From contig NW_027590119.1 in the NCBI RefSeq assembly GCF_964213995.1, positions 992,001-1,056,000 of the forward strand: 64,000 bases of DNA, written 5' to 3'. A program made the translations under genes and the position numbers. This document shows, in pieces, positions 7,956 through 43,289 of this stretch (within the stretch, counting starts at the first letter, position 1; each line of letters starts with the position of its first letter). This DNA is from Mustelus asterias (taxonomy: Eukaryota). The notes under the pieces were generated by a model. The model saw nothing but the letters and a program-made list of their open reading frames with translations, was not told the DNA's origin and made no database searches.

Positions 7956-7956
7956 A

Positions 7957-8903: not shown

Positions 8904-9789
8904 TAAGGAGTCAAATTTTATTAATACTCTGATTCGAAGTAATGCATACCCGGCAAGAATTTTTTTAGCATTTGGAAAATCCGGAGGTAGTGAATTATGC
9001 TGAAGTTGCAACTCCGTGAACGAAACGATTGGACATATTTGAGGCTCTTGTCCTTTTGTCAAAAATGCCAGAATCCTCAGACACAATAAAATCTTGCATC
9101 AATTGGAGGAGTATGCACACACACATCATTTTAAAGTTATTTCAGGACCCCCAATAAGAACGGCCGATAAAACAACTGTATAAACCCGACATGCTGATCA
9201 GCAATGGGAAAGAAGTTGCGGCTGTTGATATCACAACAAGATTGAAGATAACATTAATTCTCTGGAAAAAGCATGGGATGAAAAGGTTAAGAAGTATCAA
9301 CATCCAACTAAAGAGATGAAACAACTGACAGGTGGCTCTACTGTGAAGTTTTTTGGGTTTATTATAGGTGCCAGGGAAAATGATGTACACAAAATGACCT
9401 GATGTTGAAATTCCTCAATATCCAGAAATTTAAATTGTTTGTGGAACAAATCTGCCGACTGGCATTGTTACAGACGGTAAAAATGTTACAGATTTTTACA
9501 GACAAATGATGTTGCCTCATTGTTAACCACTTTTAATTCTTTTTTTCTTTTTGTATGTTTTGACATTTTATATGCTGATTTGTATATCTTGATCTTGTTT
9601 CTTTTCTTTAATTCATATTTTATTTAATAAAGTTTACTCTGTAATTTTATAATATATGCAACATCAAAACACATATGAAATGATGAGGGATTTATACCAT
9701 TGTCAAGAGGTGTGTCTCATTAGCTCTGCATTACCCCGATTGGTTTTATTCTGCAGTTACAAAGGCATTAATTTAATATTTACAATTTT

Positions 9790-10509
9790 ATTTTTTTAGC
9801 CCTCGATGGGTCGCCGGCATCGGAGCATCGGGACCCTCCCGATGCATCCTCTGTCAGAACACCGACATGCCCTGCCCCTGAACGACCCTCCCCCCCACCC
9901 CCTTGGCAGAGATTCCCCCCCCCCCCAAGCCAATCACAACCCCCCCCCATGCAGAGCTCCCCTCTTGACAAGCAGCCCCCTTGCAAAAGCGCCCCCATCA
10001 TGTTAAATACCTCTCCAGGCCCCACCACCACACATGCCCCACCCCCTTGGCACCGTCCATGGTGCACTTAGGGCACGCAACCAGGCACTGCTACGATGCC
10101 AGGTGGGCATGCCAGTGTGGCATTGCCCAATTTGCACTGCCCAGATATTCCCCCAAATCACCTGGTGGTTTCTTTGGCCTCTGATTCCACCACCCCCCCC
10201 CCCCTCCCCTCCCCTCCACCCCCCCCCTCCCCCCTCCCCACCAGCGTGGTCCAAGCACCTGGTCCCCGCTGGTGAAGACCAGCAGTGATTCTCGTTGGTG
10301 TGATGTCTCAACCGTACCGAACCGAACCCAACAATCATATTGCAATGTAAGCAACTCTATGCAATTAGCCTTCACCCTCTTTCTGGTCACAAAACCATTC
10401 ACGCCGGCAAAACAGGGCCAGGAAGATAGCAATACTTTCGTCTCGCAAGCCTATCTTCCCAGCTCACCGCGCTGATCGAGCGGCAAGTCAAGCCGGTAAG
10501 ATCACCCCC
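9790..10509. mobile_element. GC-rich putative non-autonomous DNA transposon remnant (Harbinger/MITE-like)
   Basis: Sharp compositional boundary, poly-C tracts, TGCCA/TGGCA motifs, terminal-looking GGTAAGATCACCCCC; only one candidate TIR seen. Confidence 0.3.
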
Positions 10510-10699
10510 TGTATCTTTCTTTCACACTCAGACTGAACCAATCAGCCTTATTCTTGAGGCAGATTTCACAGAATATAACGTCTTCTGGCTGATCAAAAGG
10601 AAAGAAGAAATTCTTAGTTTAAACAGTTGCTGCTCGCTACACAGATTCCACAAGCGTTTAGGTGAATACAGTATTCATTTTGAAATAAAGGTCCAGTCA

Positions 10700-11330
10700 C
10701 GATAGAGTTGTGGAACACCTCCGCTCAGTCCACGAGCATGACCCTGACCTTCCGCTTGCCATTAGAATTCACCACCTTGCTCTCACACTCACATTTCTGT
10801 CCTCGGCCTGCTGCAATGTTCCGGAGAAGCCCAACACAAGCTGGACAAACAGCCCCTCATCTTCCGATGAGGCACTTTACAGCCTTCTGGACTCAACATG
10901 GAATTCAACAACTTCACCCCCTGAACTCTCTCCTCAATTTTGATTTGTTGTTTTTTGCCGAGTGCCAGTCTGCATCTTGTTTTTGTTTTTTTGCTTCCAG
11001 ACAGAGCTGTCCTTTATTCTGCCATTAACACTTACTCTGGACCAATGCTTTGTTTCTTTACTATAACCATTACCTCTCCCTTTGCCTTTTGTTCCGGGAC
11101 ATTTTTGTCATTTAATCTCACCCGCCCTCTAACCAATCCCTGACTTTCCCTTTTGTTCTACCTGCCCCTCCCCCCTTTCTCAGCAGCATCAAACCCATCA
11201 TATTTCTCCCTCTCTTTCGTTTTGAAGTAGAGCTGCATTGGACATAAAAAGTTATCTTTGTTTCTCTCTCCACAGATACTGCCAGAGCTGCTGCGATTTT
11301 CCAGTTCTTTCTGTGTTTATTTCAGAGCTA
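10700..11330 (+). mobile_element. Penelope-like element (second family) 3' fragment
   Basis: EHLRSV..DPDLP..HF GIY-YIG C-terminal similarity; tail CTCTCCACAGATACTGCCAGAGCTGCTG shared with ~53085 and ~54640. Confidence 0.65.
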
Positions 11331-11588
11331 ACTGTAGCAGTGGGAAAAACACTATTTATTATGCAGATAAAATAAATGTCCTTCATCAGCTTTTGTGGAT
11401 CATTCCAGTGGAAATGTGCTCTCCCAGGCACAAAGAGCATCAGCCCACTGGAAGCAAAGTCATGAGACTGTCCAGTCCAGCAGAAAGAAACCCCCCGACT
11501 CTCCCACTTCACCAACTGTCAGAATGAACATGGTTCAGTCCTGGGTGTGATTAACAGCAGCAAGAACAGCAGAATCCAACCCCTGTCA

Positions 11589-12011
11589 TCACTTGTGAAC
11601 TCGCTGGTGTTTCAGCAGGTGGAATGACTGAGTGAATCCCTTCCCACACACAGAGCAGGTGAATGGTCTCTCCCCAGTGTGAACTCGCTGATGTTCCCAC
11701 AGACTGGATGACGTTTTAAATCTCTTTGAGCAGTGAGAGCAGCTGAACGGTCTCTCCTCAGTGTGAATGCGCTGGTGGGACACCAGTTCTCCAGAGCTTT
11801 TGAATCCGCTCCCACAGTCAGAGCATTTAAACGGTCTCTCATTGGTGTGAGTGAGATGGTGTGTGCGCAGGTTCGATGAAACAGTGAAACCCTTCCCACA
11901 CACAGGGCAGCTGAATGGTCTCTCCCCGGTGTGAATGCGTCGATGAGTTTCCAGTGCAGATGGATATCTGAATCCTTTTACACAGTCCCCACATTTCCAC
12001 GGTTTCTCCAT
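11589..12011 (-). CDS. C2H2 zinc-finger protein, 5 fingers
   Basis: ATG at 12011 (MEKPWKC); acceptor TTACAG|GATATT at 12353/12352; decayed upstream fingers 12012-12160. Confidence 0.8.
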   Translation of the reverse strand: MEKPWKCGDCVKGFRYPSALETHRRIHTGERPFSCPVCGKGFTVSSNLRTHHLTHTNERPFKCSDCGSGFKSSGELVSHQRIHTEERPFSCSHCSKRFKTSSSLWEHQRVHTGERPFTCSVCGKGFTQSFHLLKHQRVHK

Positions 12012-12061
12012 GGTGCGGATGTCCTTGTGACTCTCCAGGTTAAACAATCAGTTAAATCTCA

Positions 12062-12169
<108 letters not shown>

Positions 12170-12656
12170 TCAGGTGTGTGTATCTCAGTGCATTTCTAGT
12201 CACAGCGATGTTTACAATCTTTTGAAGCCAAGAGGCCAAACAAACATTTCTCCTGCTAGATTCAAATCTTCAGGTCCCAAGAAATTGAGTCACTCTGTCA
12301 GATCTCGATGTGATGTTGGAGATTTCTGTCTGATTTCTCCTTGTCTAATATCCTGTAAGTCAATTTAGAAAAAACATCACAATTCAGAATACGATCGAAA
12401 TTCAAATCTACATTTCTAGTTTCTATGGAGCATTCATTAAAGACACAGTCATGGAGCATTAAACCTGCCCAGCAGGGCCTCCCGTATCAGCACACAGGCA
12501 GCTGCTTTGTGAGACTGCCAGCAGTACAGACAAGTCAGAGATAAGGGTGTCCTCAGAAGTGGGATTCATTGTGAAGGCTCAGGGACGGTTGATAAGATGT
12601 AGGAATTCTATGATTCTAATGAACATTCTTTCCTCTCTCATTCCCCAAAAGCTGTG

Positions 12657-12777
12657 AATCTCCATCCCACACACTCTCCCTCCATTCTCACTCTGCTGTA
12701 TCTAATATTCACCCTCCCAATTCTCCTGAAGGTGCTGATTGAGGCTGATTGACAGATCCATGCTCACTGCTTCCTGT
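12657..12777 (-). other. Second copy of the conserved micro-exon/uORF module
   Basis: Identical to 1033-1153; same position relative to the ZNF acceptor. Confidence 0.6.
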
Positions 12778-13304
12778 CCAGCACAGAAATCATAACAAAT
12801 AGGAGCTGCAGTCAGCATTCGGCCCATCGAGTCTGCTCAACCATTCATTGAGATTATTGGTTGATCTACCTCTGCATTATTTTCCCCACACTGTCCCCCA
12901 CATCCATCGATATCTTCAATATCTAGAAACCTATCAATCCCTCTCTTGAAAATTCTTGATGACTGAGGCTCTATAGTCCTCTGGGGTAGAGAATCCAAAA
13001 CATCACCACGTCCTTGAGTGAAGAAATCCTACCTCATCTGAGCTTTCTCTCCATTTTCCAGCCTGTTCCCAATAATTATTGACTCCCTTGTCATTCAAAA
13101 ACTGTCTAACTCATCCTTGAATATATTCAATCCCTCCACTGGTCCCTTTTGGAAGAGAAATCTAGACACTAACAATTCTCTGAGGGAAGAGATTGTTGGA
13201 AATATATAATATAGCTGCAGTCCAAAATTACACAGCCAGATATAATAAGTGTATTTTATTACAGAGCTATAAATAATATATCTAATCTGCACCATATAAC
13301 AACA

Positions 13305-13735
13305 GGGGAGCTGATAGCCTCGCGGTATTATCGCTAGACTATTAATCCAGAAACTCAGCTGATGTTCTGGGGACCCGGGTTCAAATCCTGCCACGGCAGA
13401 TGGTGAAATTTGAATTTAAAAACAAAATCTAGAATTAAGAATCTACTGATGACCATGAAATCATTGTTGATTGACCAGAAAAACCCATTTGGTTCATTAA
13501 TGTGCTTTAGGGAAGGAAATCTGCCGTCCTTACCCAGTCTGGCCTACATGTGACTCCAGAGCCATATGTGCGGGTTAGGTTGATTGGCCAGGTTAAAATT
13601 GCCCCTGAGATGCGTAGGTTAGAGGGATTAGCGGGTAAATATGTGGGGGTAGGGCCTGGGTGGGATTGTGGTCGGTGCAGACTCGATGGGCCGAATGGCC
13701 TCCTTCTGCACTGTAGGGTTTCTATGAGTTCTATA
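13305..13735 (+). mobile_element. tRNA-derived SINE family B fused to a V-SINE 3' half
   Basis: B-box GGGTTCAAATCC, body GGAAGGAAATCTGCCGTCCTTACC..GTGACTCCAGAGCCA, then V-SINE GTGCGGGTTAGGTTGATTGGCC. Confidence 0.75.
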
Positions 13736-13857
13736 ATATAAACTACCCAATTCTCCTGAAGGTGCTAATTAATGCTGATCGACACTCACCATTTCATGGT
13801 TCCTGACAGATCATAAGAAATAGTTAGAAATTCAGCCCACCAAGCTGTTCAATTGAA

Positions 13858-14295
13858 TTTTTTTTATTCATTCATGGGACATGGATGTTGCTGGCTGGCC
13901 AGCATTTATTACCCATCCCTAGTAGCCCTTGGAGGGCAGTTGAGAGTCAACCACATTGTGGTGGCTTTGGAGTCACATGAAGGCCAGACCAGTTAAGGAT
14001 GGCAGATTTCATTCCCTGAAGGACATTCGTGAACCAGATAGGTTTTTCCGACAATCGAAAGGGTTTCATGGTCATCAGTAATTTCTTAATTCCAGATATT
14101 TTTAATTGAATTCAAATTCCACCAGCTGCTGTGGGGTGGGATTGTTGTCGGTGCAGACTCGATGGGCTGAATGGCCTCCTTCTGTACTGTAGGGTTTCTA
14201 TGATTCTATGGCAGGATTCAAACCCGGGTCCCCAGAACATTAGCTGAGTTTCTGAATTAATAGTCCAGCAATAATACCACAAGGCCATCGTCTCC
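13858..14295 (-). mobile_element. SINE family B with an inserted V-SINE/CR1 tail
   Basis: Homologous to 13305 and 50737; 3' tail shared with the LINE at 58810. Confidence 0.75.
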
Positions 14296-15109
14296 CCATC
14301 AAGATCATGGCTGATCTGATTGTGATCTTAACTCCACTTTTCTTCCTGTCACCCTTGACTCCCTTTTCGATCAGAATTCTCTGTATTTTGAGTATATTTA
14401 ATGATGCAGCCTCCACTGCTCTCTGGGGAAGAGAATTGCAAAGACTAACGACCCTCTGAGGGAAGACATTTCTCCTCATCGCCATCAGAAATGGGGGACC
14501 CTTTATTTTGACAATCTGCCGACTAATTCTAGAATCCCCAACATTGGAAACATCCTCTCTTCATCTATACTAATCACTACCTCACAATCTGATGTCAATA
14601 CTATGATCACCTCTAAACTCCAGTCAATACAGGCCCAAACTTTCCTCACAAAACAATCCCTTCATCCCAGGTATCAGCCTGCAGATCCTTCTCTGAACTG
14701 ACAATGACAGAGAGGTGATCAGGGAGGGCAGAGCTGAAACAAAGCAATGGATGGACATGGATTCAGATCCACAGTAACGGAGTCACACCAGCCCCAGAGA
14801 TGTGGAACCAGAGTACAGATAACAGAGCACAGGACGAAAATTCAAAATTATAGGTAAATGTTCAATAATACTCACCTCTGAAACAATTTCACTATTTTCT
14901 CATTTAAAACCTGCGGCTGGAAAGATGTCAGAAGCACTGGAATCAGAGAAAAATTGCAATCTTCAAATGTTCCAACTCCCTGCAAAAGGAGATTACAAGA
15001 GTCAGGTGTCAATTGTGGCTTGAAATTAAGAGATACACATTTGTGGGGGGCTTGAGATTGCTGTAAAAATCCTCTTCTTCTAACCATCTGTAAAAGGAAA
15101 TTCCAAAAA

Positions 15110-15440
15110 TCACAGAATCTCTGCAGTGCAGAAGGAGGCCTTTTAGCCCATCGAGTCTGCACCAAGTTTCTAACAGATCACCTTTACTCAGGCCCTATAC
15201 CTGAAACCTGATGTACGTACATCACTAATCCTTTCCTTCCCCCTCATCTTGGGACACAAAGGGACAATTTAGCATAGTCGATCAACCCACTCTTTGGAGT
15301 GTGGGAGGAAACCAGAGCACCCAGAGGAAACCCACACAGACAGAGGGAGAATGTGCAAACTCATACAGACAATCACCCGAGGCTGGAATTGAACCGGGTC
15401 TCTGGCGCTATGAGACAGAAGTGCTAACCACTGTGTCACC
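15110..15440 (-). mobile_element. V-SINE (HE1-like)
   Basis: tRNA head and V-domain. Confidence 0.85.
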
Positions 15441-15654
15441 CCCAACAGTCATTTGTCCGCCCTGAATATAAATCCATAACATTCTCCCCTCCTGTTTTCT
15501 AGCATAAGATTACTTAAGATGGAATATACTTACATTGGAAGCTATTCAGACAAGGTTCATGAGCTGATTTCGGGCATGAAGAGGTCTGTTTTATGAGGAA
15601 AGGTTCGGCAGGGTGCATCTGTGCTCATTGGATTTTAGATAAATGAGATGTGAT

Positions 15655-16145
15655 TGTTGGAGTGAAATTAAGACTGTGACCTTTGAAAGTTAATGCGTAC
15701 GTGACTACAGGGACCGGCTGCGCCCAGCACTTATCCTGTGGTTAACAAAGATCATTCTGTTGCTGACTAAATAGCGAACTAACTTTTGAGCTACATCCTG
15801 TTATTGTATAAAAAATACGGAACAGACAAAAAAAACCAGACCGCGAGGTCCAGATGGTCCACTTAGTTTAAGATAAAGGGGAACTGAAACTTGTGGGTTT
15901 TTGTTAACGGTTGTTTTTGAAGGAATGCGATTGGAGGTCAATTGTTGCTCGGGGAGCCCAATTGGCTAAACACAGGTAACCACCCAAAGCTAACGACGAA
16001 GTAACCGCTAATGTCTATATGATTAAAGTGTATAAAAGACGGCGAGCCGCCGCTCCAAATTGAGAAGGTGAAAGGCAGCATCCATGAACCCGGCCTGTCA
16101 GTCAATGACTCAAACATTGTCTCTCCTGGTCACCCAAATCCTGCA
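15655..16145 (+). mobile_element. LTR-like fragment (U3 with CCAAT and TATA), 3'-truncated
   Basis: Begins TGTTGG where a CR1 remnant stops; ATTGG/CCAAT at ~15930-15965; TATAAAA at 16031; no closing CA or TSD identified. Confidence 0.4.
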
Positions 16146-16149
16146 GCTA

Positions 16150-16520
16150 CGCCCACTGGCCGCGCATGCGCTCTGCTCCCCGCTAAACAAAGATGGCGGC
16201 CACGACACTGGGCCTGATCCCGGATAAAATCCCCGGAGCGGCAAACCCGGGACCGGAAGGCTCTTATTCAGGCCTTGCGGCCGACAGCAGATGTTTATGA
16301 AGCCTCTGCTCCCTCCCCACCCCGACTCCCGGTTCCATTCCTCCCTCCGCCCCACCGATTCTCACCCCTTGAAATAAGCGTCTCCAGCACTCGCAGGGCT
16401 CCGAGCAAAGAGACACGGCGCATGCGCCAGATACAGCGCTGCGCCTGCGTACTGAGCTCCTGTGGAGTGAATAGGGCACTTTCACACCCGCAACGGATGC
16501 TGGGTAATAACCGCCATTGA
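16150..16520 (-). promoter_or_regulatory. CpG-rich promoter/first exon, probably of the ZNF at 11589
   Basis: NRF1 GCGCATGCGC x2, YY1 AAGATGGCGGC at ~16190; NRF1-YY1 block homologous to 43920-43960. Confidence 0.65.
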
Positions 16521-17039
16521 AACCACATACAGTTAATTCAAAATAACATTGTTAGCATTTGAGGTAAATTAATGAAATATTGAGAATTGGTGATCTGCTG
16601 TGCTCCATTTCTTAAAGTTCTGCTGCAGGACCATGCAGTGGTTTCAAAGCTTTCATACCGTTTCCCCTCTCACTCCTTTTATGGTGCTGATTCTGGCTGG
16701 GTTCAATCAACAGTCACTGGTTCTTCTCTCTGTCCCTGATACTGAATATTCACTCTTTTCGAGAATGATACAGCACAAATAGAAACCATTTGGCCCATTA
16801 TGTCTCTGCTGGCTCTCTGGAAGATCTATCCAACTAATTCCACAGCCCGGCTGGTAGAGTCAGAACAATGCATATCTGTTGTAGTAATCTGAGACCTTAA
16901 TGGAAAAGGGTTTCCACAGTTAAGCACATCAGGTGCCTGGTAGAATTTAGTTGAATGTTTCTGCAGATCCCATATACTGCAGTGACATTATCCGAAAGGG
17001 CCAAGGGAGTATTCCAGTGTGTTAACCAGAATACTCCAG

Positions 17040-17330
17040 GGCACAACCTCAGGCTAAAGGGACGATCCTTTAAACAGAGATTAGGAGGAATTTCTTCAGC
17101 CAGAGATTGGTGAATCTGTGGAACTCTTTGCCACAGAAGGCTGTGGAGGCCAGGTCATTGAGTGTCTTTAAGACAGAGATGGATAGGTTCTTGATTCATA
17201 AGGGGATCGGGGTTATGGGAAAAAGGCAGGAGAATGGGGATGAGAAAAATATCAGCCATGCCTAAATAGCGGAGCAGACTCAATGGGCCGAGTGGCCTAA
17301 TTCTGCTCCTATGTCTAATAGTCTTATGGT
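17040..17330 (+). mobile_element. CR1 3' fragment
   Basis: RRNFFSQRLVNLWNSLP and CR1 tail. Confidence 0.85.
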
Positions 17331-17849
17331 TAAAAGTGGATGAATGTTGGAATTACAAAGAACAGGCATTCATATCCTGAATTTTCATAATTATCACTTG
17401 TCTGGGATGTTTCAGTATGAAAGAATCCCATGTACTTGTCAGGTGAGAGGTCATGTCCAAATGACCTGTGAAAGACAAATCACTGTCAGATTGCACTGGG
17501 GTTTATGTGATCAGGTCTTGGTTTTATGTACAAGGTCTGTATCAGACTGGAGCTGTGTCTTTGATTCTCCACAACAGTTGTAGTATCCTTACTAAATATC
17601 CACCACAACCACAACAGCCCGGACGACTGAGGTTATTGTGATCACAGCCCTTCAAATTGGATGCACAAATTCTTTCCCACATGGAGCAGGTGAATGGCCT
17701 TTTCCCTATGTGTGTACATTGAAGAGGCAGTGGCATAGTGATATTGTCACTGGAGCAGTAACCCAGAGACCCAGGGCAATGTTCTGACCATGAAACCATT
17801 GCTCACTAACATCCTCTGGGGAAGGAAATCTGCTGTCCCTCTCCTCACC

Positions 17850-18045
17850 CTATACCCGTAATCCCATACATTTAGCATGACCATTCCACCTCGCCTGCAC
17901 ATCTTTGGAGTGTGGAAGAAACCGGAGCACACGGAGGAAATCCACACAGACACAGAAAGAATGTGCAAACTCCACACAGGTTGAAATTGAACTCAGGTGT
18001 CTGGATCTGTGAGGCAGCAGTGCGATCCACCATGCCACCTTGCTG
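17850..18045 (-). mobile_element. V-SINE
   Basis: V-domain and tRNA head. Confidence 0.75.
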
Positions 18046-18716
18046 CCCAAATAGGAGACCAAAAGTATATATCCTTGGGAGACACCAAGTTCAAAGACTT
18101 TGGAGAGGAAAGGGAGGCTGGAGATGGGGCCATAATTTGCAAGCAAAGTGGGATCAACGGGTTTTTTTTTCAGAAAGTGTGATGTTTGTGTATTTAAAAA
18201 TGAGAGGAACAAAACCAGAAGAGAGGGAGAGAATCATTAACAATATCAGCCAATATGGGGAAGTTGGATGGTCAGTAATTTAATGAAAATAGAGTCAGGG
18301 CCAAGACAGGAAAGAAACTGTTGAAAGATGCAGGTTCAAGGCTCAGACAGGGAGAGGCTTTAGATACATTAGTTTGGCTCAGTGGGAGGGTGGAAGAGAG
18401 GGAAGCAGCAGGGGCAGCTGATTGGGTTGGCTCAATCCTAGTAACAAAGAAGCTCCATGACTTCATCACACTTTTTGTTGGGGGTCAGGATGGAGGAGAC
18501 AGGGGAGAGGGAGAGCCATTTGAAAGGAATGGACTTGAGTCAGAGATAATAAAAAGTTTCAACAGATTGTTTGTTAAACATAAAAGCAGATTTATTTGAT
18601 TTTCATCCAGGACATTAGTATTTATATGTGGGCTCAAATTTATTTACATAAGAGGCGAATGACCACAATCAACATATTTGTGATTTGTGGTTAACAACAG
18701 AATCAAACTCCAGCAG

Positions 18717-19749
18717 TCACTTGTCAACTCGCTGATGGCTCAACAGGTTGTATTTCTGAGTGAATCCCTTTCCACATTTGGAGCAGGTGAACGGCCTCTC
18801 CCCAGTGTGAATTCGCTGGTGGACAGTGAGTTGGGATGGTCGCCTGAACCCAGTCCCGCAGTGAGTGCACTTGAACGGTCTCTCATCAGTGTGACCACGT
18901 TGATGAGACATCAGATCGCTGCAGCTTTTATAGCATTTCCCGCAGTCTGGACATTTAAAAGGTCTCTCCTCACTGTGAACACGTTGATGGGACACTAGAT
19001 TGCTGGAACTTTTACAGCACTTCCCACAATCTGGACATTTGAACGGTCTCTCATCGGTGTGAACTTGCTGATGTGCCATGAGGTGTGATGTCAGAGTGAA
19101 TCCCTTCCCACAGTCGGTGCAGGTGAATGGCCTCTCCCCAGTGTGAATTCGCTGGTGTTCAGTGAGTTGAGATGACCACCTGAACCCAGTCCCGCAGTGA
19201 GAGCACCTGAACGGTCTCTCATCAGTGTGAACACGTTGATGGAACATTAGTTCCCTGGAACCTCTATAGCACTTCTCGCAATCTGGGCATTTAAATGGTC
19301 TCCTCAGTGTGGACACGTTGATGGAACATCACTTCCTTTAAACTTTTATAGCACTTGCCACATTCTGGACATTTACATGGTTTTTCCTCTGTGTGAACTC
19401 GCTGGTGTGTCTGCAGTGTAGATGACTGAGTGAATCCCTTCCCACACTCGGAGCAGGTGAATGGCCTCTCTCCCTTGTGAACTCGCTGGTGTGTCAGCAG
19501 GGTGGATGACTGAGTGAATCCTTTCCCACACTCAGAGCAGGTGAACAGCCTCTCCCCAGTGTTACTGTATTGGTGAATTTCCAGCTCAGACAGGTCTCTG
19601 AATCCTTCCCCACATTTCCATGGTTTCTCCTCAGTGTGACTGCACTTGTGTCTTGACAGAGCAGATGATTGTCTGAATCCTTGTCCACACACAGAACACA
19701 TGTACAGTTTTGCCCCATTGTGAACGATGCTTTTTCCTTCCATGCTCAA
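18717..19749 (-). pseudogene. C2H2 zinc-finger gene, ~12 fingers, frameshifted
   Basis: Two ORFs joined by a 2-bp loss in GAGAGA at ~19300 (HTEE-TI* instead of HTEERPFKC); finger 2 lacks DCG; acceptor TTTCACAG at ~19853; paralog of 57794-58612. Confidence 0.75.
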
Positions 19750-20454
19750 GGTTCAGTTATATTCAGGTTACCATAAATTGGGCGACTCTGTCAGATCCTG
19801 ATGTGATGTTTGGTTTGAGTTTCCTGACTGCAAATCCTCCCCTTCTAAAACTCTGTGAAATTGATTTAAAACAGCGAAAAGAGAGTGAGAGAGAATCCAC
19901 AAAAACACAAAGGCAGGTTGTGAAATTGAGCTGAATGAATCTGGTCATTTGTGGGGCCGGCGCTAGGAAAACATTACCATGGAAACTGCTGGATTGTCAT
20001 AAAACCTCAACTGGTTCACTAATACCTTTCAGGGAAGGGAATCTGCCATCCAGTCTGGGACTACACAAGGCTCTGGCCTCAATGGATGGAGAGAGGTGTG
20101 GGGGCAAAGGAGGGACTTAATGTATCTACAACTCAACCAGTGGTTTGAACCTTAGAACCGTTAACCTGCACACCGAGAAGGATCAGGGTAAGAGGTGTAC
20201 GTGAACACCATCATCTCCAAATTCCCTCCAATTTTACACACCATCCTCCCTTGTCTGACATCCAGGACTGGATGAGCAGTAATTGCCTTCGTTAAATATT
20301 GGAAGATGAAGGCTATCATCTTCAGCCCTGCAACAAATTCCACGTCCGAACCACTGACTCCATCTGTCCCCATTGCGACTGTCTGAGGCTGAACCGGAGT
20401 ATTCACAACCTCAGTAACATGTTTCATTTCAAACTGAGCTTCTAAACATATCCT

Positions 20455-21245
20455 CATAGAATCTACAGCACGGAGACAGGCCCTTCGGCCCAAACTGGTC
20501 CATGCCCACCAAAAATGCCCATGTAAGCTAACTCCATTTGGCCCATATCCCTCTAAACCTTTCCTATCCATGGATCTGTCCAAATGCCTTTTAAATGTTG
20601 ACAATGTCCCTGCCTCAACCACTCCCTCCAGCAGCTCATTCCACACCCGTACCACCCTCTGTGTAAAAAAGCTGCTCCTCAGGTTCCCATTAATTCATTT
20701 CCCTCTTAACTTAAACTTATGCCCTCTAATTCTTAATTCCCCAACCCTGGGAAAAAGACTGAGTGCATTCAACCTATCCATGCCTCTCACGATCTTACAC
20801 ACCTCTATAAGATCACCCCTCAATCTCCTACGCTCCAAAGAAAAAAGTCCTAGCCCGTCCAATCTCTCCCTATAACTTGAGTCCTGGCAACATCCTTGTA
20901 AATCTCTTCTGCACTCTCTCCAGTTTAATAACATCTTTCCAAATCAAGGTGACCAAAACTGAACACAATATTCCAGGTGCAGCCTCACCAAAGTCCTGTA
21001 CAACTGCAACATAGCCTCCCAACTTCTATACTCAATGCCCTGACTGATAAAGGCCAGCATGCCAAAAGCCTTCTTCACTGCCCTATCTACGTGTGACTCC
21101 ACCTTAAGAGAACCGTGCACCTGAACTCCAAGGTCCCTCTGTTCCACGATACTCCCTGAGGTCCTCCCATTCACCGTGAAAGTTCTACCTTGATTTGACT
21201 TTCCATGATGCAACACCTCACACTGATCTGTATTTAACTCTATTT
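20455..21245 (-). mobile_element. CR1 3' fragment nested in an old L2 (~20250-21830, +)
   Basis: RDLGVQV..HLEYCVQFWSP..; flanking L2 motifs IQNSAARVL..ITLV. Confidence 0.85.
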
Positions 21246-22525
21246 GCCACATCACCACCTACACGACCTATTTCCACCTCAGTGACATCACCCCACTTTG
21301 TCCTGGCCTCAGCTCACCTGCTGCTGAAACCCACATCCATTCCTTTGCTGCCTCTAGATTTAACTCTCCGAACAAACTCCCAGCCGGCCTCCCACATTCA
21401 ATCTCCCTGTAATCTTGGGTTGATCCAAAACTCTGCTGCCCGGGTGCTTATTCACATCAAGTCCAGTTCATCCATCACCCTTGTGCCAGCTGACTTATAA
21501 AGGCTTCCGTTTAAGAAGCAACAAAGCTTGAAAATTCTCATCCGTATTTTCTGCATGGCTGCAATCATTGCTCTCTCTGGAATCTCCTTCAGGCCTCTTC
21601 AACTCCCAATTTTCATCACTCCATCAGTGGTTGTCATTCTTTCAGCTGCTTAGACCCCGGGCCCTGCAATTTCCTCCTGAATCCTCCCCACTTCACTTTC
21701 CGCCTTGAAACCACCTCTTTGACCAAGCTGTCACCTGGCCTATTAATGTCCTTATGTGGCTCAGTGGCAAATGTTTCTTGGTAACATTTACTGTGAAGTA
21801 TCTGAAAGTTTTATGATATTAAAAGCAGAGCATAATTACAAACTATTGTCACTGTTCCTTCATCCTCACTGGGTGAGTAACCTGTAACTCCTTACCTAAC
21901 AGCATTGTGGCAGCACCTTCACCACACGGACTGCAGCGGTTCAAGGTCAAACGTCATCTTCCCCACAGGTACCTGGGGATGAGGAATATTTGCTGCTGAT
22001 CCAGTTAATGACACCCAAATCCCATGGGTATTTTAAAAATGTGTATCAGTACAATAGATAAAAAGCATCGACAGGAATACTTATTCCTTAAGCAATACCC
22101 TTTTACATTATAAGGGTATTGTTTTCAACCTGATCTCCCCTAGAATCTGGCTCCCTTGACAATTTTACATTGTGAAACTGAGTGGGTTCTGAAGCCCTTA
22201 ACGTTAAATCCAGCAGCTTCTCCTCCATCTCCACTTCAGCTCAAACTGATACAACAAAGGGAAGGAAATTGGACAAGACCCTGGAGAGAAAGAAAGCTAT
22301 GAGAATAGGGCAGAGGAGTGAGACTGATTGGTTTGTTCAACCCAGAGCAAAAGCATTGGCCTAACAAGCTAAATAACCTCCTGTATTGTAATCATTCGAC
22401 GGCTGCATGACAAATGAGCTGCACAAGATGCCATCTGCAGCTTTCAATTGGTCCATCTCTCTTTCTAGAATTCCTTCTGAGAGAAACCCCCGCCTGGGGG
22501 AAGCAGCAGTGGCCGTGTCTCCGCA

Positions 22526-23080
22526 GTGGAGTCCAGCCCTGTAACTCAGAGGGCTAAGGAAAAGAGGAGGAAGGCGGTATTAATCGGGGACTCGATGGTG
22601 AAGGGGACAGACAGGCGTTTCTGCGGAGGTAGGCGGGATTCTCGCATGGTGGTCTGCCTCCCTGGGGCCGGGATCCAGGATGTCGCTAGTCGCGTCCCGG
22701 AAATCCTGAGGTGGGAGGGAGAGGAGCCTGAGGTAGCGGTACATATTGGTACCGCTGATGTGGATAGGAAGGGAGAAGGGGTCATGAAAAGGGAGTACAG
22801 GGAATTAGGGAGACAGCTGAGAAAGAGGAAAGCAAAGGTAGTAATCTCAGGATTACTGCCTGTGCCACGGGAAGGTGAGGGCAGGAATGGAGTGAGGTGG
22901 AGGATGAATGTGTGGCTGAGGGACTGGTGCAGGGGGCAGGGATTCAGGTTCCTGGACCATTGGGACCTCTTTCGGGGCAGGGGTGATCTGTATACAAAAA
23001 ACGGGTGGAACTTGAATCACACGGGGACCAATATCCTGGCCGGTAGGTTGGCTAAGGCTACTGGGGAGAATTTAAACTAG
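22526..23080 (+). CDS. CR1 ORF1p SGNH/GDSL esterase domain (5'-truncated)
   Basis: IGDSMV, CLPGA, HIGT and LNHTG motifs. Confidence 0.85.
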   Translation: MESSPVTQRAKEKRRKAVLIGDSMVKGTDRRFCGGRRDSRMVVCLPGAGIQDVASRVPEILRWEGEEPEVAVHIGTADVDRKGEGVMKREYRELGRQLRKRKAKVVISGLLPVPREGEGRNGVRWRMNVWLRDWCRGQGFRFLDHWDLFRGRGDLYTKNGWNLNHTGTNILAGRLAKATGENLN

Positions 23081-23085
23081 ATAGG

Positions 23086-26000
23086 TTGGGGGGAGGGGAG
23101 CTAGAAGAGTTGACTAGGATCAAGGAACTAATTGATGGGGGGGAGGATGCAGGGGTAAGGGGAATTACAAAATTAATGATAGAGGAGAGGGTGCAAGTGA
23201 ATGAAGGCGGTAATTTAGATAAGGGAGTAGAGGGAGAGGGTGTTCGCGACTCATCAAAGCGGGTCCAGATAAAAGCTGGAATAAGGACACTTTGCCTGAA
23301 TGCACGAAGCATTCGGAACAAGGTGAATGAGTTGATGGTGCAAATCAGCACAAGTGGGTACGATCTAGTGGCCATTACAGAAACGTGGCTGAAAGGTGAC
23401 CAGGACTGGGAGATGAATATCCAGGGGTATCAGGCGTTTAGGAAGAATAGACAGGAAGGAAAAGGTGGTGGGGTCGCGCTATTAATAAGAGATAATATCA
23501 TTGGTAGTACTGAGGGATGACATAGGCTCTGAGGAACAAAACGTGGAATCGTCATGGGTAGAGATGAGGAATAGTAGAGGGAGAAAGACACTAGTAGGTG
23601 TGGTATATAGGCCCCCAAATAATAATGTTGAGGTAGGGAGGGCTATAAACAAGCAGATAAGGGATGCGTGTAAAAACGGAACGGCAATAATCATGGGGGA
23701 CTTCAACATGCACATTGACTGGCAGACTCAAGTCGGTAAGGGTGGAATGGAGGAAGAGTTCTTAGAATGCTGTCGGGATAGTTTCCTTGAACAGCATGTT
23801 ACGGAACCGACGAGGGAACGAGCTATTTTGGATCTGGTATTGTGTAACGAGGTAGGTAGAATTAAGGATCTTATTGTGAAGGACCCTCTTGGGTCTAGTG
23901 ACCACAATATGGTCGAATTTCTGATTCAGATGGAAGAGGAGAAAGTTTGGTCTCAAACCAGTGTCCTCTGTTTGAACAGAGGGAAATATGATAGGATGAG
24001 GGATGAATTGACTAAGGTAGACTGGGAGAGCAGGCTGGCAGGTAGGATAGCTGAGGAACAGTGGAGGATTTTTAAGGAGATCCTTTTCAGTTCTCAGCAA
24101 AAATATATTCCAGCAAAAAACAAGGATTGTAAGAAAAGGGAGAACCAGCCGTGGATAACGAAGGAAATAAAGGAGAGTATTAAAATAAAAACAGCTGCGT
24201 ACAGAGTGGCCAAAAATAGTGGAGAAACAAGTGATTGGGAAAAATTTAAGAAACAACAAAGAGAGACTAAGAAAGCGATAAAGAAAGGAAGGATAGACTA
24301 TGAAGCTAGGCTAGCAATTAATATAAAAAATGATAGTAAAAGTTTTTATAAATATATAAAAAGGAATAGAGTGGCTAGAGTGAATGTTGGACCCTTGGAG
24401 GACGAGAGGGGGGAGTTAATAGTGGGAAATGAGGATATGGCTGAGTCTTTAAATAAGTTTTTTGTGTCGGTCTTCACGGTGGAGGACACAAATAGTTTGC
24501 CAAATATTAACGATAGAGGGTTGGCAGCAGGAGAAATACTTAATACAATTAATGTTACCAGAGAGGCAGTGCTGGGTAGACTAATGGGACTGAAGGTGGA
24601 CAAGTCCCCGGGTCCGGATGGAATGCATCCCAGGGTATTGAAAGAAATGTCAGAGGTAATAGTGGATGCGTTAGTGATTATTTATCAAAACTCGTTGCAT
24701 TCTGGGGTAGTGCCGGTTGATTGGAAAACGGCTAATGTTACGCCGCTGTTTAAAAAAGGAAGGAGACAAAAGGCGGGTAACTATGGGCCGGTCAGCTTAA
24801 CGTCTGTAGTAGGGAAAATGCTGGAATCCATTATTAAAGAGGAGATAGCAGGGCATCTGGATAGAAATGGTTCGATCAATCAGACGCAGCATGGATTCAT
24901 GAGGGGAAAGTCGTGCTTGACGAACATGTTGGATTTTTATGAAGATGTGACTAGGGCGGTTGATGGAGGAGAACCGGTGGATGCGGTGTTTTTGGATTTC
25001 CAAAAGGCGTTTGATAAGGTGCCCCATAAAAGGCTGCTGAAGAAGATTAGGGCACACGGAGTTGGGGGTAGTGTGTTAAAGTGGATTGGGGACTGGCTAT
25101 CCGACAGGAAGCAAAGAGTCGGAATAAATGGGTGTTTTTCCGGTTGGAGGAAGGTAACTAGTGGCGTGCCGCAGGGATCGGTACTCGGGCCGCAACTGTT
25201 TACCATTTATATAGATGATCTGGAGGAGGGGACGGAGTGTAGGGTAACGAAGTTTGCAGACGACACAAAGATAAGTGGAAAAGTGAATCGTGTGGAGGAC
25301 GGAGAAGATCTGCAGAGAGATTTGGACAGGCTGAGTGAGTGGGCGAGGATATGGCAAATGGAGTATAACGTTGAGAAATGCGAGGTTATACACTTTGGAG
25401 GAAATAATAACAAATGGGATTACTATCTCAATGGAAACAAATTAAAACATGCTACCGTGCAAAGGGACCTGGGGGTCCTTGTGCATGAGACGCAAAAGCC
25501 CAGTCTGCAGGTACAACAGGTGATCAAGAAGGCAAATGGGATGTTGGCCTATATTGCGAGGGGGATAGAATATAGGAGCAGGGATGTCTTGATGCACCTG
25601 TACAGGGCATTGGTGAGGCCGCAGCTGGAATACTGTGTGCAGTATTGGTCCCCTTATATGAGGAAGGATATATTGGCATTGGAGGGAGTGCAGAGAAGGT
25701 TCACCAGGTTGATACCGGAGATGAGGGGTTTGGATTATGAGGAGAGGCCGAGGAGATTGGGTTTGTACTCGTTGGAGTTTAGAAGGATGAGGGGGGATCT
25801 TATGGAGACTTATAAGATAATGCGGGGGCTGGATAGGGTGGAGGCAGAGAGATTCTTTCCACTTAGTAAGGAAGTTAAAACTAGAGGACACAGCCTCAAA
25901 ATAAAGGGGGGTCGGTTTAAGACAGAGTTGAGGAGGAACTTCTTCTCCCAGAGGGTGGTGAATCTCTGGAATTCTCTGCCCACTGAGGTGGTGGAGGCTA

Positions 26001-26092
26001 CCTCGCTGAATATGTTTAAAGCGCGGATGGATGGATTCCTGATCGGTAAGGGAATTAAGGGTTATGGGGATCAGGCAGGTAAGTGGTACTGA
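23086..26092 (+). CDS. CR1 ORF2p (AP endonuclease + reverse transcriptase), frameshift at ~23500
   Basis: NARSI, ITETWL, GDFN, SDH; QGSVLGP, FADD. Confidence 0.9.
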
Positions 26093-26186
26093 TCCACGTC
26101 AGATCAGCCATGATCTTATTGAATGGCGGGGCAGGCTCGAGGGGCTAGATGGCCTACTCCTGCTCCTATTTCTTATGTTCTTATAA

Positions 26187-26652
26187 CAGTGGCAGAGTGG
26201 TTAGCACTGCTACCTCACAGCGCCAAGGACCCAGGTTCGATCCCCAGCTTGGGTGACTGTGCGGAGTCTGCACGTTCTCTCTGTGTTTGTGTGAGTTTCC
26301 TCCGGATGCTCCGGTTTCCTCCCACAGTCCGAAAATCGTGCTCTCCATTCAGAAACGTACCCTTCCCCTGCTACCCTCTGTCTTCTTTGACCGAGCCAGT
26401 TTTATATTCACCTTGCCAGCTCACCTCTGATCCCATGCGACTTCAACTTCTGCACCAGTCTGCCTCTTTCATCTGCCTCGTACACCTGTACGGGTGTTCC
26501 AGTTTCCTCCCACAGTCCGAAAGACTTGCTGGTTAGGCGCATTGGCCATGCTAAATTCTCCCTCAGTGTACCCGAACAGGTGCTCGAGTGTGGCGCCTAT
26601 GCAATTTTCAGAGTAACTTCATTGCAATGTTAATGTAAGCCGACTTGTGACA
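26187..26652 (+). mobile_element. V-SINE variant with internal insertion
   Basis: Head, V-domain duplicated around TTTCCTCCCACAGTCCGAAA. Confidence 0.7.
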
Positions 26653-26654
26653 CG

Positions 26655-29340
26655 AGCGCATCAAGGTAGATAAATCCCCGGGACCTGATGAAGTGTATCC
26701 CAGGACATTGTGGGAGGCTGGGGAGGAAATTTTGGGTCCCTTAGCCGAGATATTTGAATCATCAATAGTCACGGGTGAGGTGCCTGAAGATTGGAGAGGG
26801 GCAAATGTTGTGCCTTTGTTTAAAAAGGGCTGCAGGGAAAAGTCTGGGAACTACAAGCCTCACTGGCAATGACCAAGATTGGTGGCATAGTGGACAGCGA
26901 AGAAAGTTATCTCCAATTGCAACGGGATCTTGATCAATTGGGCCAGTGGGCTGACGAATGGCAGATGGAGTTTAATTTAGACAAATGCGAAGTGATGCAT
27001 TTTGGTAGATTGAACCAGGGCATGAGCCTTTGGCTTTGATCTTTGGGTCCTCACTGTCCACGGGGATGGTGCCAGAGGACGAGAGAGTGGCGAATGTTGT
27101 TCCTCTGTTTAAGAAAGGGAATAGAAATGACCCTGGTAATTATAGGCTGGTTAGTCTTACTTTGGTGGTTGGTAAGTTGATGGAAAAGGCCCTTAGGGAT
27201 GGGATTTACGACCATTTAGAAAGATGCGGATTAATCCGGGATAGTCAGCACGGATTCGTGAAGGGCAAGTCATGCCTCACAAATTTGATACAATTTTTTG
27301 AGGAGGTAACTAAGTGTGTTGATGAAGGTAGGGCAGTTGATGTCATATACATGGATTTTAGTAAGGCGTTTGATAAGGTCCCCCATGGTCGGCTTATGAT
27401 GAAAGTAAGGAGGTGTGGGATAGAGGAAAAATTGGCCGATTGGATAGGTAACTGGCTATCTGATCGAAGCTGCGGCTGTGTGGCTTTTGCTACCAAATAA
27501 ACCTGTTGGACTTTAACCTGGTGTTGTTAAACTTCTTACTGTATCTGATCGAAGACAGAGGGTGGTGGTGGACAGAACATTTTCGGACTGGAGGCAGGTT
27601 GCTAGCAGAGTACCACAGGGATCAGTGCTTGGTCCTCTGCTATTTGTGATATTTATTAATGACCTCGAGGAGGGGGCTGAAGATTGGATCAGTAAATTTG
27701 CTGATGACACCAAGATTGGTGGAGTAGTGGATGAGGTGGAGGGCTGTTGTAGACTGCAAAGAGACATAGATAGGATGCAAAGCTGGGCTGAAAAATGGCA
27801 GATGGAGTTTAACTCTGACAAATGTGAGGTGATTCATTTTGGTAGGACAAATTTAAATGTGGATTACAGGGTCAAAGGTAGGGTTCTGAAGACTGTGGAG
27901 GAAGAGAGAGATCTTGGGGTCCATATTCACAGATCTCCAAAGGTTGCCACTCAAGTGGATAGAGCTGTGAAGAAGGCCGATAGCGTGTTAGCTTTTATTA
28001 ACAGGGGGTTGGAGTTTAAGAGCCGTGGGGTTATGCTGCAACTGTACAGGACCTTGGTGAGACCACATTTGGAATATTGTGTGCAGTTCTGGTCAGCTCA
28101 CTATAAGATGGATGTGGAAGCGCTGGAAAGAGTGCAAAGGAGATTTACCAGGATGCTGCCTGGTTTGGAGGGTAGGTCTTATGAGGAAAGGTTGAGGGAG
28201 CGAGGGCTGTTCTCTCTGGAGCGGAGGAGGCTGAGGGGAGACTTAATAGAGGTTTATAAAATGATGAAGGGGTTAGATCGAGTGAACGTTCAAAGACTAT
28301 TTCCTCGGGTGGATGGAGCTATTACAAGGGGGCATAACTATAGGCTTCATGGTGGGAGATATAGGAAGGATGTCCGAGGTAGGTTCTTTACTCAGAGAGT
28401 GGTTAGGGTGTGGAATGAACTGCCTGCAGTGACAGTGGAGTTAGACACTTTAGGAACATTTAAGCGGTTATTGGATAGGCACAAGGAGCACACCAGGATG
28501 ATAGGGAGTGGGATAGCTTGATCTTGGTTTCAGATAAAGCTCGGCACAACATCGTGGGCCGAAGGGCCTGTTCTGTGCTGTACTGTTCTATGTTCGGCTT
28601 ACTCAGTTAATGGTAGGCATTGGGGAGAGTTACAGAACAAAGAGATCTCAGGGTACACGTTCATAGCTCCTTGAAAGTGGAGTCACAGGTGGACAGAGTG
28701 GTGAAGAAGGCATTCGGCATGCTTGGTTTCATTGGTCAGAACATTGAATACAGGAGTTGGGACATCTTGTTGAAGTTGTACAAGACATTGGTAAGGCCAC
28801 ACTTGGAATACTATGTACAGTTCTGGTCACCCTATTACAGAAAGGATATTATTAAACTAGAAAGAGTGCAGAAGAGATTTACTAGGATGCTATCGGACTT
28901 GATAGTTTGAGTTATAAGGAGAGGCTGGATAGACTGGGACTTTTTTCTCTGGAGCTGAGGAGGCTGAGGGTGATGTTATAGAGGCCTATAAAATAATGGG
29001 GGGCATAGGTCAGCTAGATAGTCAAGATCTTTTCCCAAAGGTAGGGGAGTCTAAAACTAGAGGGCATAGGTTTAAGGTGAGAGGGGAGAGATAGAAAAGT
29101 GTCCAGAGGGGCAATTTTTTCGCACAGAGGGTGGTGAGTGTCTGGAACCAGCTGCCAGAGGTAGTAGTAGACGGGGGTACAGTTTTGTATTTTAAAAAGC
29201 ATTTAGACAGTTACATGGTTAAAATGGATATCGAGGGATATGGGCGATATGCGGACAATTGGGACTTGCTCAGGGGTTTAAAAAAAAGGGTGGAATGGAC
29301 AAGTTGGGCCGAAGGGTCTGTTTCCATGCTGTAAATCTCT
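26655..29340 (+). mobile_element. Nested CR1 fragments: outer 26655-27020 plus 28597-29340, inner 27021-28596
   Basis: Outer reading HFGRLNQG resumes as TYSVNGR after the inner element's tail. Confidence 0.85.
27470..27541 (+). mobile_element. 72-bp Penelope tail insertion with a 13-bp TSD
   Basis: TATCTGATCGAAG at 27457-27469 and 27542-27554. Confidence 0.85.
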
Positions 29341-29737
29341 CTGCCTGTTTGCCCTGGATCAAACTGACACCCAGGAACTCCCAAATGCTGCAGTTTGAAT
29401 GTGTACAAATAAACTATTTATTTTATCCAATGATAATTTATTTTTGTTTTTAAGTATTTTATTAACCTTACCACCTGTTGCTATACTATTTTGATCCTTA
29501 GGAACAGAATAAATCTTAGTCACTTAGCAGATACTCACCAAAAATCTGGCTTCTTCTCTTGTAGAAGAGTAAGATCACTTCCTAAAGGCTGAGAAAGTTA
29601 GAAAGCAAAAGGGCACCCCTTTCCCTTCCTTCCCTAACGCCCTTAATTACCCAACTCCCAGAACTCTATTCTAAGCTGCACTCAAGTGATGCCGGTTCAG
29701 AGCTGTTTCTGAGCTGTAGATTCAATACAATACTCAC

Positions 29738-30928
29738 TTGCAGACATGGACATCAAGGCCTGTATGGGTCTCTAGGCCATCATGCACACATCATGATAGG
29801 AAGGATGGAGATGGTGTTGCCAGCCATGTACATGATGAACAGATTCATGGGCAGCTGTTTCAGTGGGTCCAAGGCAATGTCCCAGCAGTGCTGAAAACAG
29901 AAAGTGAGCAGGGTATCAGTAAAGGGGGCCGGTTAGGTGAGGCCATATACTGATCTTATACCCAGGCCTGGAAGTAAGGATGACGATTAACCCTTTATCA
30001 CACAGGCTGCTGTGGTTCACCAAGGTACTTCACCACCATGGACAAACCAGGGGCGTTGTCAGCCACACACTAAAGACACATTCAAATCCAACTTACTTTC
30101 TCAACCAGGATCCGGTCTGTTTCTTGGATGCAGATGTCCTGTAGCTGTTTGTCCGAACATGCGACTGGGCACATGGAGTCTCTCTGGCTATACTGTTGAT
30201 CACGGCTCCTGTGAGAAACAGAAAACACAAATTGGTCACCCTTTCAAGACCTTCTTTAAAGAAGGAGTCTCTCTGTTGAGGACCCCAACGTGGTGGCAAT
30301 AGTGCCAGCATGAACTAAAGCTTGGGCAAACCTCAGACACACACTGCTATTGTGTGTACCAAACTGCCAGGGGAATGGAGAGATGCAGAAGTGGATTAGT
30401 GTGAATTGATAATCAGGGTGCCAATCCGCTTGCCCTCCATTTAGGGACAAAGTGACAAATCACCAGATGTACCAAATTGTATCTTGAAAACAAACTGAGG
30501 GTTATTGAGAGAGATCCAGTTCAGGACCCGGCCCTGGAAACGAGCAATCGTTCCCCCAACCACCACCGCAGTTGGCACGTGACCAGGTGGAGGGGCTGAA
30601 ACCAAGATGGCATCTCAGGGTCATGACCTGGGGAAAAGATGCCAAGTGGGGTCTGAGTGGTTTCTGGAGGATTTGAGGGGCTGCTTTGTGCTGAGCAGCT
30701 CGGTGAGGGGTAAAAGAGACGTGAAAAACCCGGGGTTGGGAAGTTTTGGGTTGGTGTCACATCCCCAGGTCGCCTTCGCGGGAGTGGCGGGCCGACCCGG
30801 CTTGCCTCCTACTCGAGCCCCCGGCTCCCCGCGCGGCCTCCGCACCTGCTGCTGCTGTCGCTCAGGTTGCGCTCGAGGGTCCACTTGTGCCAGCGCGCGC
30901 TGTTGGCAAACCCCGCCCCTGCCGCCAT
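29738..30928 (-). pseudogene. EMC4: Unprocessed, truncated EMC4 (TMEM85) pseudogene: coding exons 30928-30846, 30208-30097, 29890-29738
   Basis: Spliced translation MAAGAGFANSARWHKWTLE..R / SRDQ..DKQLQDICIQETDRILVEK / [49 protein letters not shown] matches the EMC4 signature; all GT-AG sites canonical; 1-nt deletion at ~29788 and TAG at 29772-29774; later exons not found. Confidence 0.9.
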
Positions 30929-31110
30929 GGCAACGCCTGCCACCGTTAACCGTTCCCCCTTTCAAATCTGATTCCGATCTGAAGAAGAACCCACGCGCTT
31001 CCGTCAACAAACCACACCCGCTGCAATGCGCATGTGCGATCCCAACCTCCTCAGCGTTCTGCGTAAACCGCCCATTGCCCCGCCCCCCACATCGCCGCCA
31101 TTTTTGTTGA
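30750..31110 (-). promoter_or_regulatory. CpG island/promoter of the EMC4 pseudogene
   Basis: High CpG density, TGCGCATG, GC box, YY1-like CGCCATTTT, Kozak GCCATGG. Confidence 0.7.
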
Positions 31111-31555
31111 GGGCACATTGGTTCTTCATCTTCCCTCCAAACGGAGGACGTCTGCCCCACACAAAGATGGACATCATTTACTATCAGAGATATTTAAAAT
31201 ATTGCTTTTATCGCTTCAACTGTAACGCCGCATAAAACGTCAATAAAACCGAAAGGACCTTGTCTCCTCATTCAGCAACCAAAATCATAAGAATCCATTG
31301 TTAATAGGTTTCTCCACAGATGCCGCCAGGTCTGCTGAGTTTATCCAGTATTTTCAGTTTAAATTTCCCAATTCCAACATCCGCAGTATTTTACTTTTTT
31401 TTTCCTTCCCACTCTACCTCCAGTGCAACTGGATATCATGAGTAAAGCTACCACCAGGCTGATCCTTCCGGGTGGAACAGTGGTTAGCATTGCTGCCTTA
31501 CATTACAGTGCTTGGGACCTGGGTTCGATTCTTGCTTTGGGTGACTGTGTGGAGT

Positions 31556-43135: not shown

Positions 43136-43289
43136 TGGTGCTGGTATCCTTGTTTCTCTCCAGGTTGGTTGATCAGTTCAAGCCTCATACACAGTACACG
43201 TGGATTCCATCTGCCAAAGTGTAACCTCTTATTTATTGTCCCCCTCCCCCATCCTCTGATGTGAACCATCCTCCAGTGGCTGAGCCAGG

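Follow-up and report, generated by a model that had tools for sequence, protein, structure and literature searches.

Promoter and first three exons of an amplified EMC4-like paralog lie ahead of zinc-finger exons in shark gene clusters and probably form a chimeric gene family

What is a truncated EMC4 gene doing directly ahead of a zinc-finger (ZNF) exon in the shark Mustelus asterias, and does it supply that exon with a promoter and a 5′ end? The arrangement is found in the window, by which we mean the whole 64,000-nucleotide (nt) stretch analyzed (G000:C87:992001-1056000), which lies in a repeat-rich C2H2 ZNF gene cluster. In our best explanation, a chimeric gene made of an EMC4-like promoter, EMC4-like exons 1-3 and a ZNF exon was amplified, the window carries a broken copy of it, and spliced RNA is likely made from this copy, or was formerly. 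A preliminary description of the locus had proposed capture of a housekeeping promoter through a direct duplicate of EMC4, as an event local to the window. Both of these particulars had to be given up: the donor is a multi-copy EMC4-like paralog with exons 80-91% identical to those of the parent gene, and the event is old and amplified. The parts of the unit are as follows (ORF, open reading frame; aa, amino acids; UTR, untranslated region).

30929-31200, minus strand: predicted CpG-rich promoter and 5′ part of the EMC4-like module, alignable to the parent promoter over some 160 nt ahead of the ATG
31037-31027, minus strand: NRF1-like box GCACATGCGCA, kept in 53 of 64 copies
31095-31104: YY1-like motif in the EMC4-like promoter region
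30928-30846, minus strand: EMC4-like exon 1, coding part; 83 nt, phase 2 end, start GCC ATG G, donor GTGCGG
30208-30097, minus strand: EMC4-like exon 2; 112 nt, phase 0 end
29890-29738, minus strand: EMC4-like exon 3; 153 nt, versus 154 in intact copies
29737-19853, minus strand: chimeric intron 3 of 9885 nt, against some 5.1 kb in the majority of sisters
19852-19744, minus strand: ZNF acceptor and linker; TTTCACAG-AG acceptor and a 109-nt linker with two in-frame stops ahead of the ZNF ATG
19743-18717, minus strand: C2H2 ZNF coding exon; ATG at 19743, ORF end at 19291, 150 aa
18716-18560, minus strand: ZNF 3′ UTR; AATAAA at 18644 and 18596

The EMC4-like half is recognizable by its exon structure and sequence. 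GT/AG borders are present at all three exons, and exon 3 matches the Pfam EMC4 family (PF06417, E 6e-14) in a profile scan. Within exon 3, a 1-nt deletion near 29788 leads to a TGA at 29782-29780, where the ORF stops after 101 aa, and a TAG follows at 29774-29772. The deletion is common to 13 of the 32 copies of class A, the group of sisters that includes the window copy; the TAG is unique to the window copy (1 of 84 sequences) and could be an error. No exon 4 was found on the same strand up to 40 kb from window exon 3. With exons 4-5 missing and a 101-aa ORF where EMC4 has five exons and about 183 aa, the copy is not a functional EMC4 ortholog, and the introns 1-3 and promoter that it retains rule out a processed pseudogene. 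The exons with their splice sites, the Kozak-type start, the CpG-rich 5′ region, the coding decay and the absence of exons 4-5 had all been described correctly. Retention of the splice sites was rejected as evidence of selection: about 45% of intron-1 dinucleotides (262/575) are equally invariant across 28 distinct copies, so the kept sites are no better than the intron background.

In the ZNF half, matches to zf-C2H2 (PF00096) occupy 5 + 7 stretches, five of which fall within the 150-aa ORF. Intact sister ZNFs have 398 aa and 12 fingers; relative to an intact sister, 168 nt are missing from the window exon and 2 nt more are deleted at 19303/19302, and a frameshift with the same HTEETI end was found at three other loci. 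The acceptor at 19852 and the break after finger 5 thus agree with the preliminary description. Broken in both ORFs, the window copy is most likely a pseudogene member of the chimeric family. A 22-nt ZNF acceptor motif (window 19853-19874) has 258 occurrences in the genome (C71, C75, C23, C12 and unplaced contigs), with 0 for the control.

The two halves are joined within intron 3, which is homologous to intron 3 of full-length EMC4-like copies until about position 26900, roughly 330 nt before the expected exon 4. Two parental sources therefore meet at a genomic junction, as in a chimeric gene. Two long interspersed nuclear elements (LINEs) lie in this intron.

27025-28598, plus strand: LINE fragment
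22487-26183, plus strand, antisense to the cassette: near full-length LINE with an open 867-aa frame resembling reverse transcriptase (23489-26092)

The fragment, common to class A and missing from sisters L059, L061 and L079, was inserted later than the junction was formed. The longer element is missing at the corresponding place in sister L059 and looks young, with its 867-aa frame still open; the reverse transcriptase identity of this frame was judged from its translation rather than by a profile scan. This element, together with sequence deleted by most sisters, accounts for the greater length of the window intron.

A search of the whole genome with PF06417 gave 137 matches. Exon 3 accounts for 106 of them, spread over 49 contigs, and exon 4 for the other 31. 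Exon 4 lies behind exon 3 in 29 of the 106 copies, at 3.3-3.7 kb in 28 and at 25 kb in one, and 77 copies are without it. The copy with the 25-kb spacing is the intact 183-aa parent EMC4 (G000:C71:20307253-20335931, near the C71 end), which answers the search for an intact locus suggested earlier. To our knowledge, EMC4 is conserved and essentially single-copy. The remaining exon-4-bearing copies represent a full-length 180-aa EMC4-like paralog (up to 28 copies; NCBI protein clusters P0006, P0109 and P0111; omega over exons 1-3 of 0.35), and five of nine translated keep the 180-aa ORF open. In six full-length copies examined with extended flanks, a ZNF gene in convergent orientation lies about 9-12 kb past exon 3. 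EMC4-like proteins are 78-81% identical to the parent (three tested), and in a tree 14 of them, including two truncated class A sisters, are separated from eight canonical EMC4s by a branch with support of 100/98. Multi-copy EMC4-like proteins are also found among NCBI proteins of the catsharks Scyliorhinus canicula and S. torazame. Because these proteins form a separate clade and are multi-copy in catsharks too, the donor is, on sequence evidence, an old, amplified paralog and not the housekeeping gene itself. The exon 1-3 block of the window has 40 full-length matches at 88-100% and is 88-96% identical to 39 sisters, among the best 40 of 117 candidates. NCBI annotates the truncated loci as EMC4-like. 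One lone exon-3 fragment, L077 (C25:12757287-12757424), lies on a large contig outside the clusters.

The truncated copies differ in what follows them. About 8.4 kb behind exon 3 was examined for 76 of the 77, the 77th being the window. Class A comprises 32 copies, including the window, in which exons 1-3 are joined via intron 3 to the same ZNF exon; in class B (16 copies) the partner is a second ZNF exon about 74% identical to that of class A. The EMC4-exon/ZNF pairs that the preliminary description had proposed to look for elsewhere thus exist in number. Other sense-strand fingers follow in class C (8 copies), an antisense ZNF comes first in class D (14 copies), and no ZNF is in range in class E (7 copies), two of which reach a third sense ZNF with 15 fingers when extended. 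In the A/E lineage, homology to the full-length intron 3 can be followed to about 330 nt short of exon 4; in B it continues to within about 70 nt of that exon. Given these different junctions and partners, we considered whether the truncated classes arose independently, but a single clade was not rejected (p-AU 0.18, 29 chosen rows). The exon-3 acceptor is lost in 11 of 16 copies in class B, which is unspecific, since antisense class D shows the same loss (7/7). In the antisense copies L065-L068, L070, L113-L120 and L136 the ZNF is only 1.6 kb past exon 3, and antisense transcription across it is possible.

The units lie in 20-30 kb duplications with variable ends that contain other ZNF genes. 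The 106 exon-3 matches on 49 contigs and the differing homology boundaries among seven extended loci are as expected of a core duplicon; positive selection of the kind reported for NPIP is not seen (omega 0.35-0.45 over exons 1-3). Genome-wide, 37 class A ZNF 3′ ends were found, 32 with the EMC4 module and five without. We considered the latter as the ZNF donor before capture, but in all five the homology starts at or inside a LINE younger than the junction, so they look derived through later swaps. At L167/L168 (C157, about 423900) and L169/L170 (C194), the class A ZNF is open, and in place of the EMC4 module there is unrelated sequence that is mildly rich in CpG and contains a donor-like AAG-GTGAG, possibly a second 5′ swap. 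A simple inversion of the ZNF that lies convergent to the full-length copies was rejected as a source, that ZNF being 71-75% identical in long alignments versus 83-90% for the EMC4 parts.

Splicing between the two halves is predicted at four sister loci. Because exon 3 ends in phase 1, joining it to the ZNF acceptor should give a two-residue tail and a stop. NCBI models P0049, P0053 and P0143 end in RF-stop. Of the 512, 489 and 516 AGs scanned at these loci, exactly one per locus gives such a tail, and in all three cases it is the ZNF acceptor; none of 10,606 intron-3 AGs yields it. In P0175, exon 2 is joined to the ZNF acceptor with a 21-aa tail that one of 568 AGs fits. NCBI models of this kind are predictions that as a rule rest on RNA-seq introns. 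These models make chimeric EMC4-ZNF transcription within the family a likely proposition. Of five sequencing runs, one is presumably RNA. In runs X1, X2 and X5 on 18500-31300, swamped by repeats, none of the 15 joints listed of 2446 connects exon 2 or 3 to 19852, a result that speaks neither for the junction nor against it. Over exons 1-3 the X1 contigs mostly have an intact EMC4 frame and so derive from other copies, and X1 also covers the ZNF 3′ UTR; as the parts of a gene cannot be ranked by contig depth, this coverage was not used as evidence.

The sequence between the module and the acceptor offers no evident substitute for the EMC4-like promoter. A CpG-rich stretch spans window 30501-31500, and its motifs are ones that we take to be NRF1-like and YY1-like. 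In a search confined to CpG-type promoters, intron 3 of all 48 class A and B copies contained no CpG island and no ZNF-type promoter, as the preliminary description had stated for the window; the CpG maximum is 7-13 per 300 nt in 47 copies and 17 in the other, versus 22-32 at the EMC4 promoter. Other ZNF genes of the window lie near a set of three CpG islands (15950-16500, 43350-44050 and 53650-54200) that are related to each other and contain NRF1- and YY1-like motifs; these are probably the standard promoter family of such genes, possibly bidirectional. None of the 48 copies has a match to this family between module and acceptor. At the family level, donation of the EMC4-like promoter and exons to the ZNF exon is supported, since the unit is repeated, no other promoter was found in intron 3 and four NCBI sister models splice to the acceptor. 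The promoter capture and EMC4-ZNF chimera proposed earlier are therefore supported in part; this support does not extend to transcription of the window copy or to translation of the ZNF.

The unit was assembled in several steps. EMC4 was duplicated into a divergent paralog that is multi-copy in the ZNF clusters of this genome and also in two catsharks. A rearrangement in intron 3, just ahead of exon 4, put an intron and an exon of a ZNF in the place of exons 4-5, and class B has a junction and a partner of its own; repeats may have mediated the rearrangement. The unit spread within the 20-30 kb segmental duplications and was re-joined to further partners. Exon 3 or exon 2 would splice to the ZNF acceptor, as the four models suggest. 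In the predicted transcript the EMC4 part is an upstream ORF (uORF). The full leader carries 9-14 upstream ATGs, and skipping to exon 2 leaves 1-4; in most class A copies, an isoform from exon 1 to the ZNF would have a 55-codon uORF ending 24 nt ahead of the ZNF ATG. An in-frame EMC4-ZNF fusion was not found: a linker stop or frameshift is present in every class A or B copy shown, no tested isoform is open, and a second AG 8 nt downstream is also followed by the linker stops. ZNF protein would thus be produced only through re-initiation or exon skipping.

Whether the chimera has a function is the point on which the strongest alternative turns. In that alternative, to which we give slightly less than even chances, truncated EMC4-like pseudogenes are passive hitchhikers in ZNF duplications, splicing is exon-trapping noise and the ZNF is untranslated; chimeric RNA is made in either case, and only function separates the two explanations. 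The presence of other ZNF genes in the duplication units, the upstream ATGs of the leader and the antisense and non-ZNF partners are in its favor. So is decay of the copies, most of which are broken: both ORFs are open in only 1 of 25 class A copies with exon 1 in view. A link between broken EMC4 and intact ZNF (9/10 vs 11/15) was neither convincing nor drawn from independent copies. Intact ZNF ORFs and signs of selection on the ZNF argue the other way. An intact ZNF ORF is kept by 14 of the 32 copies in class A and by 8 of the 16 in class B. For the ZNF, 15 colinear class A copies gave an omega of 0.33 (p 3e-6) and eight class B copies one of 0.42 (p 8e-4), both sets having been picked for unchanged length; neutral LINE frames in the same introns gave 0.66-1.01 (not significant), the proper controls being LINE2 and LINE3, as LINE1 was read in a non-coding frame. 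In five distinct colinear copies, zero-fold sites of the ZNF are less variable (20/756) than intron (44/500) and four-fold sites (13/162). Selection on the ZNF is thus suggested in colinear copies and is unsettled over all copies, and functional ZNF output from the chimera seems possible but is the less probable outcome on present sequence comparisons.

Several observations weigh against a functional chimeric gene or against the chimera itself. Short ZNF segments across 31-32 class A copies gave omega values of 0.81 and 0.62, neither significant. None of nine tested ZNF ORFs was found in the protein collection, and no ZNF of class A type was among 16 protein candidates in a weak search. The chimeric junction is drawn from predicted models of sister loci, with no model for the window copy, and two models (P0140 in class A and P0171 in class B) read through into intron 3. 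The joining is also not specific to ZNFs, because the ZNF that follows is antisense in 14 truncated copies and because splicing in some copies leads to a non-ZNF exon, which in class C models lies 10-17 kb downstream, as seen in P0122 and P0139 for L046-L048 and L050 (extensions L137-L139).

A second alternative, which we consider improbable, is that function resides in a truncated EMC4-like protein of about 118 aa without the C-terminal half, with the ZNF exon providing a stop and 3′ UTR. The NCBI label of these loci and an omega of 0.45 (p 3e-4) over exons 1-3 in class A are consistent with this. However, 20 of 25 class A copies have lost the EMC4 frame or a splice site, the zero-fold divergence of the EMC4 exons (4.4%) equals that of intron (4.0-4.8%), and a long tree hints at conversion from full-length copies. 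Slightly less probable still, intron 3 could contain an unseen promoter of the ZNF itself, perhaps within a LINE, with EMC4 as just a neighbor. The five class A ZNFs without EMC4, two with open ORFs, indicate that other 5′ ends can exist, but the low CpG content of intron 3 and the missing match to the promoter family of other window ZNFs argue against it. An assembly artefact, with exons 4-5 misplaced or contigs falsely duplicated, is very improbable: many copies are on unplaced contigs and some near-identical ones may be assembly redundancy that inflates raw counts, but the arrangement is present in 32 copies, the exon-3 deletion and the HTEETI frameshift recur at other loci, copies differ by more than 1.5% in 28 of 63 cases overall and 13 of 25 in class A, the 20-Mb contig C71 alone carries 13 exon-3 copies, and the expansion is found in catsharks too.

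Other unusual genes were seen in and around ZNF clusters. A ZNF gene at window 41790-43172 has recently expanded internally to about ten tandem fingers that are nearly identical. In a Pristiophorus model (P0178), one annotated protein unites a histone H2A domain, C2H2 fingers and the same ZNF linker as here; it may reflect a further capture in a shark ZNF cluster or an erroneous gene model.

Comparable chimeras and duplicons are known. CHRFAM7A is said to combine partial duplication and fusion at a single locus with an in-frame product, and it differs in this from the shark EMC4-ZNF units, which show no in-frame fusion. NPIP is reportedly a primate core duplicon under positive selection. Unlike in NPIP and NBPF, the core here derives from a conserved housekeeping gene of the endoplasmic reticulum (ER), with omega below 1 rather than positive selection. 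As in the NBPF core duplicon, a gene segment was re-duplicated with changing flanks and partners (PMC5345166). The same paper presents HYDIN2 as incomplete duplication and gene fusion in segmental duplications, in which the truncated gene gains a promoter (PMC5345166). The shark unit shares with it a partial duplicate, fusion transcripts, which here are predicted, fused exons that do not extend the ORF and a multi-copy promoter segment; here, however, the truncated gene donates the promoter, in at least 48 copies and to several ZNF partners. The ZNF257 inversion (PMC4591017) is likewise a rearrangement between repeats in a ZNF cluster that led to a fusion transcript, but as a single polymorphic event that disrupted a ZNF, whereas here a non-ZNF 5′ end was placed on ZNF exons and amplified. 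Relative to EMC4 itself, with its intact parent in the same genome, the window copy belongs to a paralog clade at about 80% protein identity.

The catshark genome paper describes ZNF clusters of recent duplicates, and "emc4" is absent from its main text as available (PMC11979771) and from the available part of the Squalomix preprint (10.1101/2025.06.08.657570); the supplements of both could list the expansion. No literature was found on EMC4 with zinc finger and shark, or on catshark with the ER membrane protein complex, in a search that left most subscription journals outside, and EMC4 with chimeric and duplication returned only unrelated work, as judged by titles and the start of abstracts. 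The EMC4-ZNF unit is real and belongs with the promoter-capture chimeras of segmental duplications, as an apparently undescribed variant that is unusual in its donor and its scale.

A family of about 100 EMC4 paralog copies is thus present in shark ZNF clusters, full-length and multi-copy in three species and, in truncated form, heading at least 48 ZNF exons in M. asterias. It offers a natural series for how ZNF clusters acquire promoters and how a coding 5′ end decays to a leader. It is also a warning that many "EMC4-like" annotations in this genome conceal ZNF exons as 3′ UTR. It is conceivable, though unlikely, that the 5′ half of the EMC4 paralog is a reusable promoter-plus-uORF cassette, a core duplicon of ground-shark ZNF clusters that has captured at least three ZNF partners and would place them under housekeeping transcription, with translation gated by splicing and uORFs. 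If the cassette is only a passenger, it would still be a clear case of a housekeeping gene caught in the birth and death of ZNF genes.

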